Assembly: GCA_902555945.1 (NCBI GenBank)
Contig: CACDUS010000006.1
Coordinates: 9,505 to 73,504, forward strand
Length of the DNA stretch: 64,000 nt
Origin: an uncultured Pelagibacteraceae bacterium
GTDB lineage: Bacteria > Pseudomonadota > Alphaproteobacteria > Pelagibacterales > Pelagibacteraceae
Reading direction: 5' to 3'
In this document: in pieces, positions 13,257-30,674 of the stretch
Layout of the letters: each line of letters begins with the position of its first letter
How positions within the stretch are numbered: position 1 is the stretch's first letter
Notes under the pieces: generated by a model
What the model saw: only the letters and a program-made list of their open reading frames with translations
Database searches by the model: none
Told to the model about the DNA's origin: nothing
Translations under genes and position numbers: made by a program

Positions 13257-14177
13257 TTATGCTATTGATTTAAATAGATTTTTTTTGATATAGGTATGAG
13301 GTAAATTCTTTTCTTTTATCTCAATAATTGAAAAATTATCATTATTATTGAATACTTTTCTCAATAGTTCATTAGTCAAATGATGACCTCCTTGAGAGCA
13401 TTCAATTTTTGCTAACAATCTATAACCACATGTATAAAGGTCCCCAATGCAATCTAAGATCTTATGATTTACAAATTCTTTTTTGTTTCTTAAGCCTTCA
13501 TCATTTAAAATTTCCTTATCTTTAACAACTATAGCATTGTCTAAACTACCACCTTTAGCTAAACCATTTTTTTTAATTTCTTCGATATCCTCGTAAAGAC
13601 AAAAAGTTCGTGAATTAAAAATATCCTCAAGGTTATCTTCATAAACATTAATCTTATTTCTTTGGCTTCCTATAACTGGGTTGCTGTACTTAAGCTCATA
13701 ATCAATATCTAAACTTAATTTTGATGGTTCAATTGAAATTTTTCTTTCACCATCTTTAAACTCAACTTTTTGATTAATCTTTATAATTTTAATAGGCACT
13801 GAACTTACTTGTAATCCAGTCAAAAATATCTTTTCAATAAATTCTTTTGCAGATCCATCAAGTATAGGAATTTCAATATTATCAATTTCGATTAAAGCAT
13901 TGTCTACACCTAAGCCAAATAAAGCACCCATCAAATGTTCAATAGTAGATACCTGAACACCATACTCATTTGATATTGTGGTATTCAAGGATGTATTGCT
14001 AACATTTTCAAAACTTGGATAAATCAAATTATTTTGATTTAAATCTATTCTTTTAAAAACTATTCCTGTATTTGGAGTAGCTGGTTTTATTGATAAATTA
14101 ACCTTCTCACCACTATGGAGCCCTACTCCCGAAAAATTTACATTATTTTTAACAGTTTTTTGATTTAACGCTGACAC
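13257..14177 (-). CDS. lpxC: UDP-3-O-acyl-GlcNAc deacetylase
   Basis: GVGLHSG, STIEHLMGAL, PILDGSA, HKILDCIGD, GGHHL; GTG start. Confidence 0.97.
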   Translation of the reverse strand: MSALNQKTVKNNVNFSGVGLHSGEKVNLSIKPATPNTGIVFKRIDLNQNNLIYPSFENVSNTSLNTTISNEYGVQVSTIEHLMGALFGLGVDNALIEIDNIEIPILDGSAKEFIEKIFLTGLQVSSVPIKIIKINQKVEFKDGERKISIEPSKLSLDIDYELKYSNPVIGSQRNKINVYEDNLEDIFNSRTFCLYEDIEEIKKNGLAKGGSLDNAIVVKDKEILNDEGLRNKKEFVNHKILDCIGDLYTCGYRLLAKIECSQGGHHLTNELLRKVFNNNDNFSIIEIKEKNLPHTYIKKNLFKSIA

Positions 14178-14241: not shown

Positions 14242-14943
14242 TTAGCTAAAAAAATTAAAAAATTTCTCAAAAAAACCCTTATTTTTCGAGGTTTTAACAT
14301 AAAACTCCACTTCATTAGGGTTGCAACCTTCAGTTATTTTTTTGGTATTTTTAAAAAAATCATCTTTGTTGTTAAAGTAACTCTTAACATACTGGCCACT
14401 TACAATTTTATTAATCGAGATTTGATACTTCTCCAAACAGTTCTCTAATTTTGAAACTAAATTAATTGATAAACAAATAAAATTTATATCTAAAGAGTAA
14501 TTATTACATATTAAATCTCTTGGCAACTTAGAGTAATCATTATTATTAATTTTAAAATTATTAATTAACATATGAATTATTTTTTTATTTTCTAAAGTTT
14601 TTTCACATTGATCTTTAGCTTCATTTAAAGAATAAGATAAATCTTCTAAAGTAAGAATTTTACCATTATTGTTATTTTTTACTGACAATTGAACATTCAA
14701 GAAACCTTCAGTTTCAAGAATTAAGGTTACTTGTTTTATGAATTGCTTTAAATTTTTTTCAAGTTTTAAAATGTTATTATCCAAAAATTTTTGTAACTTT
14801 TCAAAATCAAATTCATTTAAATTGTTTTCAATTAATAATTCATATTCGTAAATTTTTTCAGAAGTATCATGTTTCATTGCAGAAATTGCAAATTTATTTT
14901 TTGACACAAGTATAAAAACTTCAAAAACTAAATCATCATTCAT
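14242..14943 (-). CDS. Reduced FtsA-like cell division protein (apparent loss of ATPase motif and lobe 2)
   Basis: Sits directly after ftsQ. Has a 1C-like segment (IIHMLINNFKIN...LENCLEKYQISINKIV) and a C-terminal amphipathic FFEKFFNFFS. Only 233 aa and no DIGT motif. Confidence 0.65.
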   Translation of the reverse strand: MNDDLVFEVFILVSKNKFAISAMKHDTSEKIYEYELLIENNLNEFDFEKLQKFLDNNILKLEKNLKQFIKQVTLILETEGFLNVQLSVKNNNNGKILTLEDLSYSLNEAKDQCEKTLENKKIIHMLINNFKINNNDYSKLPRDLICNNYSLDINFICLSINLVSKLENCLEKYQISINKIVSGQYVKSYFNNKDDFFKNTKKITEGCNPNEVEFYVKTSKNKGFFEKFFNFFS

Positions 14944-22270: not shown

Positions 22271-23355
22271 TATCTTAATTTTAAAGTAGCTAAACCTATC
22301 ATGGCTAAAATAATTGAGATAATCCAAAATCTAATTACAACAGTTGATTCTGGCCATCCCTTTTTTTCAAAATGATGATGGATAGGTGCCATTTTAAAAA
22401 TTCTTTTTCCGGTGAGTTTATAAGAAATTACCTGGACCATTACTGAAACTGCTTCAAGAACAAAAAGACCTCCTGTAATAGCTAATACTATTTCATGCTT
22501 AGTTATAATTCCTACGGCTCCTAAAGAACCACCAAGTGATAATGAACCAGTGTCTCCCATAAAAATTTTTGCTGGTGGGGCATTAAACCATAAAAATCCT
22601 AAACAAGAACCTATGATGGCTCCACAAAAAATTGAAATTTCTCCAGTTCCTTGAATGTAGGGTATTTGTAAATAGTTTGAAAATACAATATTTCCAGTAA
22701 CATAACTTATAAATGCGAAACAAGTTGCAACTAAAATTACTGGAACAGTAGCTAAACCATCTAAACCATCTGTCAGATTAACTGCATTAGAGGAACCAAT
22801 AATTACAAACACTGAAAAAGGAATAAAGAACCATCCTAAATTTATTATTAAATTTTTAAAAAAAGGAAAATATAAATAATTGATTTCCTGATAATCAACT
22901 AGGTTTACAAAAAAGCTTACTCCGATAATAGCTAAAGTAATTTGTGAAATTATTTTAAACTTTGATGAAATTCCAGAAGAATTACTATATTTAATTTTTT
23001 TGTAATCATCTAAAGCACCAAGCAATCCAAAAGAAATCGCTATATATATGCAAAATAAAATATTAATATTTGTTAAATCTCCCCAACATAATACTGATAT
23101 TAAAAGTCCAAATAAGATAATCACTCCACCCATTGTTGGTGTTCCAATTTTTTTAACAATATGCTCCTCCGGTCCATCATCACGTATTGGATTTAAAATT
23201 TTTTGATTTGAAAAAAATTTAATAAAAGGGCCACCAATAATCAAAACAATAATTAAAGAAGTAAAAAATGATAAACCAGTTCTAAATGTTAGATATCTAA
23301 AAACATTTAAAAATCCAAAAGTATCTACAAAATTTAGTAAAAATTGATAGAGCAT
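22270..23355 (-). CDS. mraY: Phospho-MurNAc-pentapeptide transferase
   Basis: GTPTMGG, DDY.K, NAVNLTDGLDGL, FMGDTGS, MAPIHHHFE. Confidence 0.97.
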   Translation of the reverse strand: MLYQFLLNFVDTFGFLNVFRYLTFRTGLSFFTSLIIVLIIGGPFIKFFSNQKILNPIRDDGPEEHIVKKIGTPTMGGVIILFGLLISVLCWGDLTNINILFCIYIAISFGLLGALDDYKKIKYSNSSGISSKFKIISQITLAIIGVSFFVNLVDYQEINYLYFPFFKNLIINLGWFFIPFSVFVIIGSSNAVNLTDGLDGLATVPVILVATCFAFISYVTGNIVFSNYLQIPYIQGTGEISIFCGAIIGSCLGFLWFNAPPAKIFMGDTGSLSLGGSLGAVGIITKHEIVLAITGGLFVLEAVSVMVQVISYKLTGKRIFKMAPIHHHFEKKGWPESTVVIRFWIISIILAMIGLATLKLR

Positions 23356-26198
23356 TATTTAAGTCCTTTTATCTCTTTTACTATCTTATTGAAACCTGTC
23401 GCATTTGAGGCTTTTATCATTAAATAATCATTATTATTTAAATCATTTCTAATAAATTCAATTATTTGCAATTTATTAAATAAAATTTTACCTTTTTTAG
23501 AATTATTGATTTTTTCGAATATATTTGAAACTTTATTTCCTTTTACAAAAACTTTATCTATTCTAGTTTTATTTATAATCGGAACAATAGATTGATGAAG
23601 TTTTTTTGAGTGGCCTCCAAGCTCCAACATATCACCAAGCAAAAGATATTTTTTGGATTTTTTTTTTTCAATTTTATCATAATTCAGTATTGCAGATTTT
23701 AGTGATAAAGGATTTGAATTATAACTTTCATCAATTAAATTAATTTTTTTTTTATTTATCTTAACAACTGAAAGATCACCCCTGCCTATAGGTATTTTAA
23801 AATCTAAAAATATATTTTTTTTTAAGTTATGAATATCAATATAAATACTCATTACTGATAAAGAACCTAGAATATTATAAATATGATTTTTAAAATCATT
23901 AGAAATTAAGAAATTTTTTATTAAATTATTCTTTTTAATAGCAATTTCAAAATATTTATCTTTTTTATTAATATTTGCAAATTTAATATCTGATTTCTTA
24001 TTTTTAATTCCAAATGAAATTACTTTAAGATTCTTACTTAAAGCTTTTTCTTTGTGTAGTTTAAAAAAACTATCGTCTGCATTTAAAACAACAAAACCAT
24101 CTTGTTTTGTGTTGTCAATAATTTCTGATTTAGCGATTGCAATATCTTTGATGTTTTTAAAATTTTTAGCATGAGCATAATTAATATTAGTTATAACAGA
24201 TACATCCGGTTGAATAATTTTTGATAAATAATCTATTTCACCTTTTTTATCCATACCAACCTCTAAAACACCATAATCATCATTATGTCTTAAATTTAAA
24301 AGACTTAAAGGAACACCATATTTATTGTTAAACGATTTTGGAGATATGCTTACTTTTGAAATTTTTTTTAAAGAATTTCCCAAAAGTTCTTTAAGTGTAG
24401 TTTTTCCACAGCTTCCTGTTATAGCAATTATTTTTGTGTCAATATTTTTCCTGAAAGTTTTTGAAACATCAGTTAAAAATCTTAACGAATTATTAACTAT
24501 CATTTGTTTTCTATCAGAAAATTTTTTATTGATATTATTTGTGACTACTATTGATGCTTTTTTTTTAAAAGACTCGCCAATGTATTTATTTCCATCATTT
24601 TTTTTTCCTTTAATGGCAAAAAAAATGTCACCCTTGCTTACCTCTCGTGAATCAATTCTAGCTTTATTTATAAGGTCAACCAAAAGTGGTTTCTTATTTT
24701 CAGATAATTCATTTAATATATTCAATTTTAGATTATCTGATAAATTTGAATTTTTTCTTTTAATTGCTTCTAAAATTATTTTTTTGTCTGAAAAATAAAT
24801 TTTTTTATTCCCTATAATTTGTGTTTTTTCATGTCCCTTACCAGCTACTAACAAAATTTCACCCACTTTTAAATTTTGGATTGCTTCAAATATTGCTTTC
24901 GCTCTATTAGAAATTTCTTTAAATTTTTTTCTTATTATACCTTTTTTAATATCTCTTCTAATTTTATCAGCATTTTCAAATCTTGGATTATCATCAGTTA
25001 GGTAAATCTTATCTGAATAAACATCAGCAATTTTACCCATCTTTGATCTTTTATTCTGATCTCTATTTCCACCACATCCAAAAACTAAAGATATTTTTTT
25101 ATTTGGGAATTGTTCTTTTAAATTCAAAAGACAAGTTTTCAAAGCCTCTGGTGTATGTGCATAATCAAGAATTACTCTAGATTGATTTCTAATTCTGCCA
25201 ATTTTTTCTAACCTTCCCTTTACAGGATTAAGTTTTGAGATAACATTAAAAATATCTTTATAATCTAATTCGCTTTTATTAGCTGCAATTGCTGCCATTA
25301 ATACATTTTTAATTTGAATTCTTCCTATTAATTTTAGATTTATAATTTTTGTAAAATTGTTGAATTTAATTTTAAGTATTTGATGTTCACCATTAAAAGT
25401 ATGTGACAAAACTTTTAAATTGTCTTTATCATTATTTATTGAACTAAGTTTTAATTTTTTATTAATTGCAATTTTTTTAATTTTATTAAACTCAGATATT
25501 TTTTTATCTGTTATAGCATTACCCTTATTTATAATTAGTCTTTCAAAAAGATAAAGTTTGGCCTTTAAGTAAGCTTTAAGGTTTTTGTGATAATCTAGAT
25601 GATCTTGAGAAAAATTTGTAAATATTCCCGACCTAAATTTTAACCCATCTAATCTATTCTGATGAAGACCATGGCTTGAGGCCTCCAAAATTACATTCTC
25701 AATTTTTTGAATTTTAAGTTTATGAAGTATTTGGCTTAATAATAATGGATCAATAGTTGTATTTTTTAAATTTAAATTAAAATGTTTAGATTTAACTCCT
25801 AAAGTTCCAATCGAAGCAACTTTCCTATTATTCAAATTTAAGATTTGATAATAAAAATCAGCAATTGAAGATTTCCCATTTGTCCCAGTGACAGCGATTA
25901 AATTTTTTGGTTTTAAATTGTAAATTTTGAATGAAACTTCAGCTAATAACTTTCTTATATTCTTAGTTTGAATAAATAAAATTCCATTTTGAAATTCTTT
26001 ATTCTTATTTTCAGTAACTATGATTTTGGAACCCTTTTTGATAGCTATTTGAATAAAATTGTTACCATCAAGATTATTACCCTTTATAGCAAAAAAAATA
26101 TGATTTTTTTTTATCTTCGAACTGTTTGAAGAAATTCCTGAAAAAAAAAATTTTGAATATTCTTTTTTAATATTTGGAATATAATCTTTGAGCAGCAT
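23355..26198 (-). CDS. murEF: Fused MurE (meso-DAP ligase)-MurF (D-Ala-D-Ala ligase)
   Basis: One 947-aa ORF. MurE half: TGTNGKSS, DYAHTP, GCGGNRD, DDNPR, AGKGHE. MurF half: IDSR, TGSCGKTT, NN.YGVP, EVGM, DESYNSNP, GDMLELG, KASN. Confidence 0.95.
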   Translation of the reverse strand: MLLKDYIPNIKKEYSKFFFSGISSNSSKIKKNHIFFAIKGNNLDGNNFIQIAIKKGSKIIVTENKNKEFQNGILFIQTKNIRKLLAEVSFKIYNLKPKNLIAVTGTNGKSSIADFYYQILNLNNRKVASIGTLGVKSKHFNLNLKNTTIDPLLLSQILHKLKIQKIENVILEASSHGLHQNRLDGLKFRSGIFTNFSQDHLDYHKNLKAYLKAKLYLFERLIINKGNAITDKKISEFNKIKKIAINKKLKLSSINNDKDNLKVLSHTFNGEHQILKIKFNNFTKIINLKLIGRIQIKNVLMAAIAANKSELDYKDIFNVISKLNPVKGRLEKIGRIRNQSRVILDYAHTPEALKTCLLNLKEQFPNKKISLVFGCGGNRDQNKRSKMGKIADVYSDKIYLTDDNPRFENADKIRRDIKKGIIRKKFKEISNRAKAIFEAIQNLKVGEILLVAGKGHEKTQIIGNKKIYFSDKKIILEAIKRKNSNLSDNLKLNILNELSENKKPLLVDLINKARIDSREVSKGDIFFAIKGKKNDGNKYIGESFKKKASIVVTNNINKKFSDRKQMIVNNSLRFLTDVSKTFRKNIDTKIIAITGSCGKTTLKELLGNSLKKISKVSISPKSFNNKYGVPLSLLNLRHNDDYGVLEVGMDKKGEIDYLSKIIQPDVSVITNINYAHAKNFKNIKDIAIAKSEIIDNTKQDGFVVLNADDSFFKLHKEKALSKNLKVISFGIKNKKSDIKFANINKKDKYFEIAIKKNNLIKNFLISNDFKNHIYNILGSLSVMSIYIDIHNLKKNIFLDFKIPIGRGDLSVVKINKKKINLIDESYNSNPLSLKSAILNYDKIEKKKSKKYLLLGDMLELGGHSKKLHQSIVPIINKTRIDKVFVKGNKVSNIFEKINNSKKGKILFNKLQIIEFIRNDLNNNDYLMIKASNATGFNKIVKEIKGLK

Positions 26199-29213: not shown

Positions 29214-30674
29214 TTAATTTTTTTGTCTTCTTAAAAATGCTGGTATTTCAAGATCATCTTCTTCATTATCACTCTCTGATGAACTAAGTAAATCATCTGA
29301 TGCAGAATCTTGATCCTGTGAATTAAACAAATCTGGCTCATTAGTATCAACTCCAAATTCTTTTAAATCACCTGAAACTTCATTTACAGGCTTTTCAGAA
29401 ATTACTTCTTGCGAAAATGATATTTCATTATCATTAGATGTATTTTCAACAATATTTTCAACTTCTTGATTTTTTAATAATTCTTCATGATATTGATTAT
29501 TAACTTCATCAATAGACTCATTATTGAAATTTTCTGTTACAACCTCATTTTCTAATTTTAAAGCATTAGCTCCATGTGATACAGGATTCGTACTTGCATT
29601 AGAAAAACTAAATGAGGTAGTTCCATTATTTGTATTGAAATCAGAATAGCCAGGATTACGATTTTGAATTCTATGAACCATATTTATAACTGATTTAGTC
29701 TCTGGTTGTTGACCATCTAAAGAAGTTGCAACAATTGAAACTCTCATTTTGCCATCTAGCTCTGGGTCAGTAATAGCACCTATAATTAGTTCGGCTTCTG
29801 GATCAACTTGATCTCTAACTTTGTTGACTGCTTCATCAACTTCAAAAAGCTTTAGATCTTTACCACCTGTTATATTCACTAATAAACCCTTTGCACCTTT
29901 AAGAGTATAATCATCAATTAATGGATTGCTAATCGCCATCTCTGCAGCTTTCATCGCTCTTCCTTCGCCTTCAGCTTCACCTGTTCCCATCATTGCTTTA
30001 CCCATTGAAGCCATAACAGACTCAACATCAGCAAAATCTAGATTTATTAATCCAGGTCTTACCATAAGGTCAGTTATACTTTGAACGCCATGCATTAAAA
30101 CATTATTTGAAAGATTAAAAGATTCTTCAAATGTAGTTTGTTCATTTGCTATTTTGAATAAGTTTTGATTAGGTATGACTATTATTGTATCTACATGTCG
30201 TCTAAGTTCTTCTAAGCCTTGGTGAGCTCTTCTCATTCTTGAAGGACCTTCATATAAAAATGGCAATGTAACTACTCCAACAGTTAGTATATTTAATTCT
30301 TTTGCAGCTCTAGCAATCACATGTGCAGCACCAGTTCCAGTTCCACCTCCCATGCCAGCAGCTATAAATACCATGTTTGCACCTTGTAAAATATTTACAA
30401 TATCATTTAACGACTCATCTGCAGCTGCTTGACCAATATCAAGTTTTGCACCAGCTCCAAGTCCTTTTGTTAAATTTAGACCAATTTGAATTTTTGATTT
30501 AGCTTTACTGTGTTTTAAATCTTGAGCGTCAGTGTTAACAGCGATAAACTCAACACCCTGCATTCCACTATCAATCATCTCATTAATTGCATTTCCACCT
30601 GCGCCACCAATTCCCATTACTAAAAGTCTTGGTTGCAATTCTTTTATCTCTGGCACTTTAAAGTTAATTGTCAT
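29214..30674 (-). CDS. ftsZ: Cell division protein FtsZ with long acidic linker
   Basis: [24 protein letters not shown]-terminal [13 protein letters not shown]. Confidence 0.98.

Follow-up and report, generated by a model that had tools for sequence, protein, structure and literature searches.

A reduced FtsA lacking subdomains 2A and 2B in marine Pelagibacterales

How does a cell anchor its Z-ring and activate septal synthesis when the protein in the ftsA position appears to be half an FtsA? This question is raised by a 233-residue protein, which we call mini-FtsA, encoded in a 64,000-nucleotide stretch of DNA from an uncultured bacterium of the Pelagibacteraceae (assembly GCA_902555945.1). 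This stretch, the window, lies on contig C6 (CACDUS010000006.1) of a 1.14-Mb genome in 26 contigs that is estimated to be 90% complete, and its G+C content is about 25%. In Gram-negative models, FtsA has three linked activities: binding of the FtsZ tail by subdomain 2B, assembly into ATP-dependent (double) filaments on the membrane, and activation of FtsN, FtsQLB and FtsWI by a signal that runs through subdomains 1C and 1A. In solved structures, the FtsZ C-terminal peptide is seated in the 2B lobe, which also contributes half of the filament contact. Alignments and a predicted structure indicate that mini-FtsA is orthologous to FtsA with 2A and 2B removed, and it is the only FtsA found in the mini-form genomes that we searched. 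We propose that it acts as a nucleotide-free adaptor of the late divisome and that an FzlC-like protein anchors FtsZ.

A predicted half actin fold in the ftsA position

Mini-FtsA was recognized by FtsA models at scores below their curated cut-offs. Pfam SHS2_FTSA matched residues 92-156 (E = 0.0027, 18.5 bits against a cut-off of 25.4), and TIGR01174, a profile of 371 positions, matched residues 85-186 with its positions 84-183 (E = 1e-6, 28 bits where the cut-off is 175.85). The Pfam FtsA domain PF14450 gave no match on mini-FtsA. Profile alignment to the Protein Data Bank (PDB) placed the 1C part of the protein on residues 107-195 of FtsA from Escherichia coli, Vibrio and Xenorhabdus, and the conserved positions of this part are S87, K89, N92, L106, N107, H124 and F155. 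AlphaFold2, run on an alignment of 50 mini forms, returned a model with a predicted local distance difference test score (pLDDT) of 87 and a predicted template modelling (TM) score of 0.80. Along the chain, three strands, a helix and a strand of 1A are followed by a sheet-helix-sheet unit, residues 82-159, that is 1C. A further helix, another strand and two more helices make up the remainder of 1A, and the terminal helix stands apart. Its best PDB fold matches by Foldseek were FtsA of Thermotoga maritima, Staphylococcus aureus, Vibrio and E. coli (E = 6e-13 to 1e-10, with 4a2a, 7q6i and 7q6d at the top), which aligned over about 190 columns with TM-scores of 0.63-0.67 by query and about 0.4 by target. 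A 375-residue relative (pLDDT 82) aligned to FtsA over 360-398 columns, with TM-scores of 0.70-0.74 by query and 0.64-0.75 by target. PilM and the GspL cytoplasmic domain were also among the fold matches of mini-FtsA, far behind FtsA.

The model thus describes a predicted half actin fold, with complete 1A and 1C and without 2A and 2B; at 233 residues, aligned to one FtsA half only, mini-FtsA does not complete the two-domain fold. Alignment with E. coli FtsA mapped the missing part as 2A and 2B, a region of about residues 196-361 that starts at the phosphate-2 strand and stops short of the last 1A helix; helix 196-204 of mini-FtsA corresponds to that last helix. With 2B itself absent from the model and the alignment, the FtsZ-peptide site that it carries is absent as well. 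In its position after ftsQ, its 1A with a 1C/SHS2 insert, its last 1A helix, flexible linker and C-terminal amphipathic helix, and the conserved His in a 1C strand (IIH motif), mini-FtsA resembles canonical FtsA (E. coli, T. maritima, S. aureus and Vibrio; 7q6d, 4a2a, 3wqt and 7q6i). It differs in lacking 2A and 2B (about 140 of 375-420 residues), together with half of the longitudinal filament interface. The C-terminal tail, GFFEKFFNFFS (residues 223-233), has a hydrophobic moment of 0.54, compared with 0.57 for the tail of E. coli FtsA; a helix is predicted at residues 222-231 with low pLDDT, as expected of a detached tail.

The nucleotide site has decayed in parallel. Full-length Pelagibacter FtsA has invariant D11/G13, D206/G208/T212 and G308/G310. 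Residues 10-22 of mini-FtsA are FILVSKNKFAISA, and its phosphate-1 site reads FILVSKNKF compared with D-x-G-S-S in relatives. The phosphate-1 Asp is found in none of 181 mini forms, which have Tyr, Phe or Leu, and in all of 122 full-length proteins; the phosphate-1 Gly is kept in 27 of the 181 mini forms and 121 of the 122 full-length proteins. In the alignment, the phosphate-2 and adenosine motifs were removed with the deletion. Loss of nucleotide binding along with domain 2 would produce such a pattern, and judged from these sequences the usual mode of nucleotide binding would be impossible for mini-FtsA.

An initial annotation of the window, made from the DNA letters, had anticipated much of this. 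It described a single 233-residue open reading frame (ORF) between ftsQ and lpxC with no second half in the following gap, a first strand without the phosphate-1 motif, a 1C/SHS2-like middle and an amphipathic tail, all of which we confirmed. Its estimate of about 50 residues between 1C and the tail was too low: there are about 63, and they complete subdomain 1A. Its description of a 1C adaptor without the ATPase motif and the FtsZ-binding lobe therefore stands for the missing motifs and for 2A and 2B, but the protein comprises 1A and 1C, not 1C alone. Three findings that it had named as fatal did not materialize: the best fold matches are FtsA, the modelled fold is half an actin fold rather than an intact one, and no full-length ftsA occurs in the host genome or its closed relatives.

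The last point was addressed with two profiles. In the host genome and ten closed mini-form genomes, the proteins matched by TIGR01174 were MreB (344-359 residues), DnaK and the mini form, and no others. With a Pelagibacter domain-2 profile, the six-frame ORFs of the host genome gave no match better than E = 0.02 and 12 mini-form genomes, all closed or nearly so, gave none, whereas three full-length controls gave 1e-24 to 1e-50. As the closed relatives lack a full-length ftsA, it is unlikely that one resides in the unassembled 10% of the host genome.

A conserved family derived from full-length FtsA

To place mini-FtsA among its relatives, we used both sequence searches and genome comparisons. 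A word-indexed search returned 344 homologous proteins from marine metagenomes, the best 120 of which are nearly all 233-234 residues long. An exhaustive HMMER search of 1.84 billion representatives gave 438 matches; the full-length ones span 229-237 residues, the most distant at about 27% identity. Wherever a relative is encoded in a genome record, that record belongs to the Pelagibacteraceae or Pelagibacterales (SAR11). Database entries name the mini form 'hypothetical protein', apart from one Tara gene-catalogue entry that assigns it to COG0849/K03590 (ftsA). Across mini forms, length is held at 231-245 residues despite divergence to about 30% identity, and thirteen columns are invariant, the tail included; little or no variation is seen at M1, in the tail GFFEKFF or in the motif G-x-N-x-N-E-V. 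For pairs with unsaturated synonymous sites, the ratio of nonsynonymous to synonymous substitution rates (dN/dS) is 0.18-0.19 for mini-ftsA, 0.18-0.21 for ftsQ and 0.08-0.10 for lpxC and ddl, so that purifying selection on mini-ftsA is as strong as on ftsQ. The gene order ddl-ftsQ-X-lpxC was found in 73 of 78 genome loci, and the other five are cut by contig ends. With more than 340 homologues, 231-237 residues long, this synteny and a dN/dS of 0.18, mini-ftsA is a real protein family and no chance ORF. FtsQ and mini-FtsA distances are correlated (r = 0.92), also once lpxC and ddl are accounted for (partial r = 0.64), but the two genes overlap, are co-inherited and recombine as a unit, so that the correlation is at most a hint of co-evolution. 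The FtsQ-FtsA pair has been described as a fast-diverging locus in Pelagibacterales (10.64898/2026.10.07.757358).

Running the mini-form profile on 151 genomes of the order revealed three size classes. About 53 of the 78 genomes of the same GTDB genus have ORFs of 222-245 residues, six of them partial (three cut by contig ends, two frameshifted and one in two pieces on separate contigs). Fifteen genomes of the genus have ORFs of 370-380 residues, which the mini profile matches in two pieces, 3-214 and 188-234, with an insert between them; one more has a 401-residue FtsA. Other genera and the sister family have ORFs of 394-407 residues. Relatives of 368, 375 and 398 residues align to the first 190 residues of the mini form and share its tail (as EGANEHEVSIIPRRASKKGLFERFFNLFQ and similar sequences), and between the shared N-terminal half and the tail they match PF14450 above threshold. 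Consistent with this arrangement, hhalign of the mini form against a Pelagibacter full-length FtsA that passes PF14450 gave a probability of 99.9 (E = 6e-33). Full-length Pelagibacterales FtsA (370-380 residues in part of the genus, 394-411 in other genera and the sister family) shares 27-32% identity with the mini form over the N-terminal half, as well as the tail and synteny, but keeps 2A, 2B and the invariant D-x-G, D-I-G...T and G-x-G motifs. Because the long relatives match both ends of the mini form with an insert between, the mini form is FtsA with an in-frame internal deletion of about 140 residues. We rejected the MAFFT placement of the tail before the gap and the collinear hhalign path over residues 190-219, as EG-N--EV and the tail match at the C-terminal end.

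In a tree of the shared N-terminal part, 118 mini representatives fell into one group with a support of 98 in the Shimodaira-Hasegawa-like approximate likelihood ratio test, with one 398-residue protein weakly nested near its base. Constraining the mini forms to one clade gave a higher likelihood and was not rejected by the approximately unbiased test (p = 0.88). A single ancient in-frame deletion is the simplest account of these sequences.

In the 370-380-residue FtsA found in part of the genus, 2B is trimmed to helices only and is about 25 residues shorter than in the 398-411-residue forms. In the AlphaFold2 model, the 375-residue relative is without the hairpin that E. coli FtsA has at VPSVGGRPPRSLQRQ, and the phosphate-2 loop of the 370-380-residue proteins reads DIGYEKTS instead of DIGGGT. 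FtsA was reduced a second time in these proteins, independently of the mini form but within its genus.

Two closed genomes, G101 (C1:193850-194455) and G119 (C1:959361-960061), have a mini-ftsA interrupted by one frameshift, located at a poly-A run, with both parts otherwise intact, and a third, G035, has split ftsZ and mreB. The poly-A position and the split genes of G035 make homopolymer errors of long-read assembly the likely cause, although the frameshifts in G101 and G119 may be real.

The gene lies in a minus-strand division and cell wall (dcw) cluster in the order mraZ, ftsZ, rsmH, ftsL, ftsI, murE-murF fusion, mraY, murD, ftsW, murG, murC, murB, ddl, ftsQ, the 233-residue ORF and lpxC (Table 1). 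A single 947-residue ORF (23355-26198) occupies the expected place of murE and murF. The ATG of mini-ftsA lies inside the end of ftsQ, with an 8-nucleotide overlap with the ftsQ stop, and the spacing to lpxC is 64 bp, which leaves no room for a second ftsA half. The ftsZ gene is about 15 kb from ftsQ-ftsA, a distance that is the same whether FtsA is mini, mid (370-380-residue) or long and that also holds for two further genera of the family; its relocation is thus older than, and independent of, the FtsA deletion.

Table 1. Features of the mini-FtsA protein and its locus, in window coordinates
Feature	Coordinates	Strand	Basis or remark
lpxC	13257..14177	-	LpxC model, E = 1e-94
mini-ftsA, 233 aa, FtsA without subdomains 2A and 2B	14242..14943	-	ORF, weak FtsA model matches, hhalign, AlphaFold2, Foldseek
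C-terminal amphipathic helix KGFFEKFFNFFS, residues 222-233, presumed membrane-targeting sequence	14245..14280	-	near-invariant; hydrophobic moment
Linker, residues 207-221, with invariant N208, N210 and E211 (G-x-N-x-N-E-V)	14281..14325	-	common to full-length relatives
Remaining part of 1A, residues 160-206: helix 160-171, strand 176-182, helix 183-190, helix 196-204	14326..14466	-	model and alignment with 368-398-aa relatives
Approximate deletion junction, residues ~190-196	14356..14376	-	set by eye using the two-piece match; accurate to within a few residues
Subdomain 1C (SHS2 insert), residues 81-159, best conserved part	14467..14703	-	Pfam SHS2_FTSA, PDB profile alignment, conservation
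N-terminal part of 1A, residues 1-80: three strands, helix 47-65, strand 71-77; decayed phosphate-1 site	14704..14943	-	AlphaFold2 model
ftsQ, 223 aa	14936..15607	-	Pfam POTRA_1 and FtsQ_DivIB_C
FtsZ C-terminal peptide, 14 residues	29217..29258	-	invariant with mini, mid or long FtsA
ftsZ, 486 aa, flanked by mraZ and rsmH	29214..30674	-	TIGR00065, E = 7e-116

The FtsZ peptide and a candidate membrane anchor

The 2B lobe that would normally hold the FtsZ peptide is missing. As the initial annotation had noted for the window, FtsZ still ends in its C-terminal peptide. This peptide, of the form D(D/E) plus ten further residues, is identical in 23 genomes of the genus, whether they have a mini, mid or long FtsA, and in three of four outgroup genomes, whereas the adjoining linker varies freely, which argues that some peptide-binding partner is still under selection. 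About 35 residues before the peptide, near 29310-29330, the FtsZ linker contains the motif (A/E/S)PDLF(S/N), which is kept in all genomes of the genus with any FtsA form (as TPELF and TPNLF in two of them) and is not evident in other genera. It may be a second FtsZ binding motif.

We searched the genomes for the other tethers that the initial annotation had suggested. SepF and ZipA were absent, and SAR11 has been reported to lack zipA, ftsE, sepF, minCD and mipZ for the most part (10.1101/2025.06.25.661606). A single heparinase II/III-like protein of 530-550 residues (PF07940, E = 1e-42 to 1e-57), which we refer to as FzlC-like, was present in all 28 mini-form genomes tested. The same protein was found in all eight mid-form genomes, in the genome with a 401-residue FtsA and in all three other genera of the family tested, and it was absent from seven of eight genomes of the sister family, which has a 397-residue, more canonical FtsA. 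PF07940 also matches the Caulobacter control genome; NCBIfam has no model for the protein. In Pelagibacter the gene is flanked by rpe and purH. Of 60 alphaproteobacterial families, 39 have single-copy homologues; among six loci, five had rpe next to the gene, and the two loci with sufficient flanking sequence had purH. Both the rpe-X-purH position and the match of the family model to the Caulobacter control liken the SAR11 protein to FzlC of Caulobacter crescentus; it differs in that its binding to FtsZ and to the membrane is putative.

The host assembly contains neither the FzlC-like gene nor purH and rpe. In the two nearest closed relatives, the genes flanking the FzlC-like region correspond to the last genes of host contigs C11 (about 45.8 kb) and C7 (about 78.9 kb), and these relatives predict a gap of about 6.5 kb between the two contig ends, holding rpe, the FzlC-like gene, purH and two more genes. 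Because the neighbours lie at the contig ends and rpe and purH are missing with it, we place the gene in an assembly gap and reject its loss from the host genome. Before the arrival of FtsA, FzlC attaches to the C-terminal peptide of FtsZ and draws FtsZ to membranes (10.1101/171280, 10.1101/632075), and in Agrobacterium Z-rings are formed without FtsA (10.1101/412759).

A proposed division of labour and its alternatives

The reading that we favour, with a probability of roughly 0.6, is that mini-FtsA is a nucleotide-free adaptor of the late divisome and that the FzlC-like protein anchors FtsZ. Mini-FtsA would be a peripheral membrane protein incapable of forming canonical FtsA filaments, and it would retain the late role of FtsA, coupling to or activating FtsQLB/FtsWI septal synthesis through 1C and 1A. 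The FzlC-like protein of the heparinase II/III family would anchor the Z-ring through the invariant FtsZ C-terminal peptide. The alphaproteobacterial division of labour, in which FzlC acts early on the FtsZ peptide and FtsA late, as in Caulobacter, would already have been in place, and this redundancy probably let domain 2 go during genome streamlining. The late arrival of FtsA in Caulobacter and the FtsA-free Z-rings of Agrobacterium make such a division of labour plausible for the class. A stronger version, in which the FtsA-FtsZ link is fully severed in the dominant SAR11 lineage, with FtsA a monomeric, nucleotide-free, membrane-bound 1A-1C adaptor and the Z-ring held by an FzlC-type protein alone, is more tentative and falls a little short of an even bet.

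Several points weigh against this proposal. The late-adaptor function is one that we infer. FzlC itself is a protein that we take to belong to the heparinase II/III family (Meier et al. 2016), the supporting observation here being the match to the Caulobacter control, and the presence of an FzlC-like gene in the host is deduced from an assembly gap. The best-known partner of 1C also appears to be missing: we found no FtsN-like protein in the host genome and rejected FtsN as the 1C partner, the sole SPOR protein being a 255-residue lipoprotein (C9:49275-50042, with a signal peptide ending in LLSC) that is apparently RlpA-like. FzlC is dispensable in Caulobacter (PMC8429850), which makes it a putative rather than a known sole anchor. 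Finally, signalling from Caulobacter FtsA to cell wall synthesis has been proposed to need binding to the FtsZ peptide (10.1101/632075), which speaks against a fully uncoupled FtsA.

The dispensability of FzlC also lends some weight to the main rival, that mini-FtsA is still the main FtsZ anchor through a new surface, for example the 1A face that once contacted 2A, which would bind the C-terminal peptide or another FtsZ motif. The former phosphate-1 Asp is now Tyr, Phe or Leu in nearly all mini forms, so that a hydrophobic patch may be exposed, and both the invariant peptide and the conserved PDLF motif of the linker could serve as its target. However, the peptide is just as invariant alongside full-length FtsA, PDLF also accompanies FtsA of 370-401 residues and so is not tied to the mini form, and all mini-form genomes tested keep an FzlC-like protein, a known type of peptide binder. 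We therefore regard a new surface as unlikely. The initial annotation had held that FtsZ must be tethered by a new surface or by another protein; the first is not required, and for the second the FzlC-like protein is a candidate.

Other explanations fare worse. If mini-FtsA were a decaying, functionless remnant, kept by translational coupling to ftsQ or for lack of time, its evolution at about twice the rate of lpxC and ddl and the frameshifts in two closed genomes would be accounted for. Yet its dN/dS is far below 1 and equal to that of ftsQ, its length and invariant columns have been held through deep divergence, the frameshifts are single and sit at poly-A in a data set in which ftsZ and mreB are also found split, and the three short copies are cut by contig ends. 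On the dN/dS, the fixed length and the age of the clade we reject a pseudogene, and consider this explanation very improbable. More improbable still is that the FtsA halves are encoded separately, or that domain 2 comes in trans from another actin-like protein, which would restore the ATP-binding fold. Actin-fold halves are structurally autonomous RNase H-like domains and the deletion falls exactly at a domain boundary, but the domain-2 profile came up empty in the host and 12 other mini-form genomes while recovering its controls, TIGR01174 yielded only MreB and DnaK besides the mini form, and the phosphate-1 site has decayed. Hardly credible, finally, is an origin outside FtsA, from another SHS2 half-actin protein of the PilM or GspL type that came to occupy the ftsA position. 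The sub-threshold scores of the FtsA models and the presence of PilM and the GspL/EpsL cytoplasmic domain among the fold matches are what one would cite for it; FtsA structures nevertheless come first by at least five orders of magnitude in E-value, and homologues that share its tail and gene position connect mini-FtsA without a break to bona fide FtsA. Like mini-FtsA, the GspL/EpsL cytoplasmic domain (1w97, 4pht) and PilM are reduced or nucleotide-free actin-like, membrane-associated adaptors with an SHS2 insert, but they differ in origin and context, with TM-scores of 0.37-0.47, and GspL keeps a second RNase H-like domain.

The late-adaptor proposal has a parallel in engineered proteins. Isolated 1C was reportedly studied in polar recruitment assays, along with E. 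coli 1C and S12-S13 deletion mutants, by Corbin et al. in 2004 and Rico et al. in 2004. Alone, 1C is said to recruit late division proteins independently of FtsZ, in constructs that reportedly could not support division alone. Such recruitment is the function that we propose for the mini form, which differs in being natural and fixed in an abundant free-living lineage.

Many division regulators are missing from SAR11, whose cell-cycle control fails under perturbation (10.1101/2025.06.25.661606), and the domain loss in FtsA adds a concrete molecular item to these losses. Our search of the literature on SAR11, Pelagibacter or Pelagibacterales together with FtsA or the divisome found no description of FtsA domain loss; in the papers covered, the SAR11 FtsQ-FtsA pair appears only as a fast-evolving one. 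In one of the ocean's most abundant groups, the first two activities of FtsA, FtsZ binding and filament formation, appear to have been removed and the third, we infer, kept under selection. Mini-FtsA is thus a natural minimal FtsA for asking which activities are essential, and the FtsA proteins of 233, 370-380 and about 400 residues in one genus form a natural comparative series. The proposal also highlights an FzlC-type protein as a possibly sufficient anchor of the Z-ring. If its stronger version is correct, SAR11 would provide a natural separation of the two FtsA functions, and ATP binding, polymerization and FtsZ binding by FtsA would be dispensable for division in a free-living Gram-negative bacterium.

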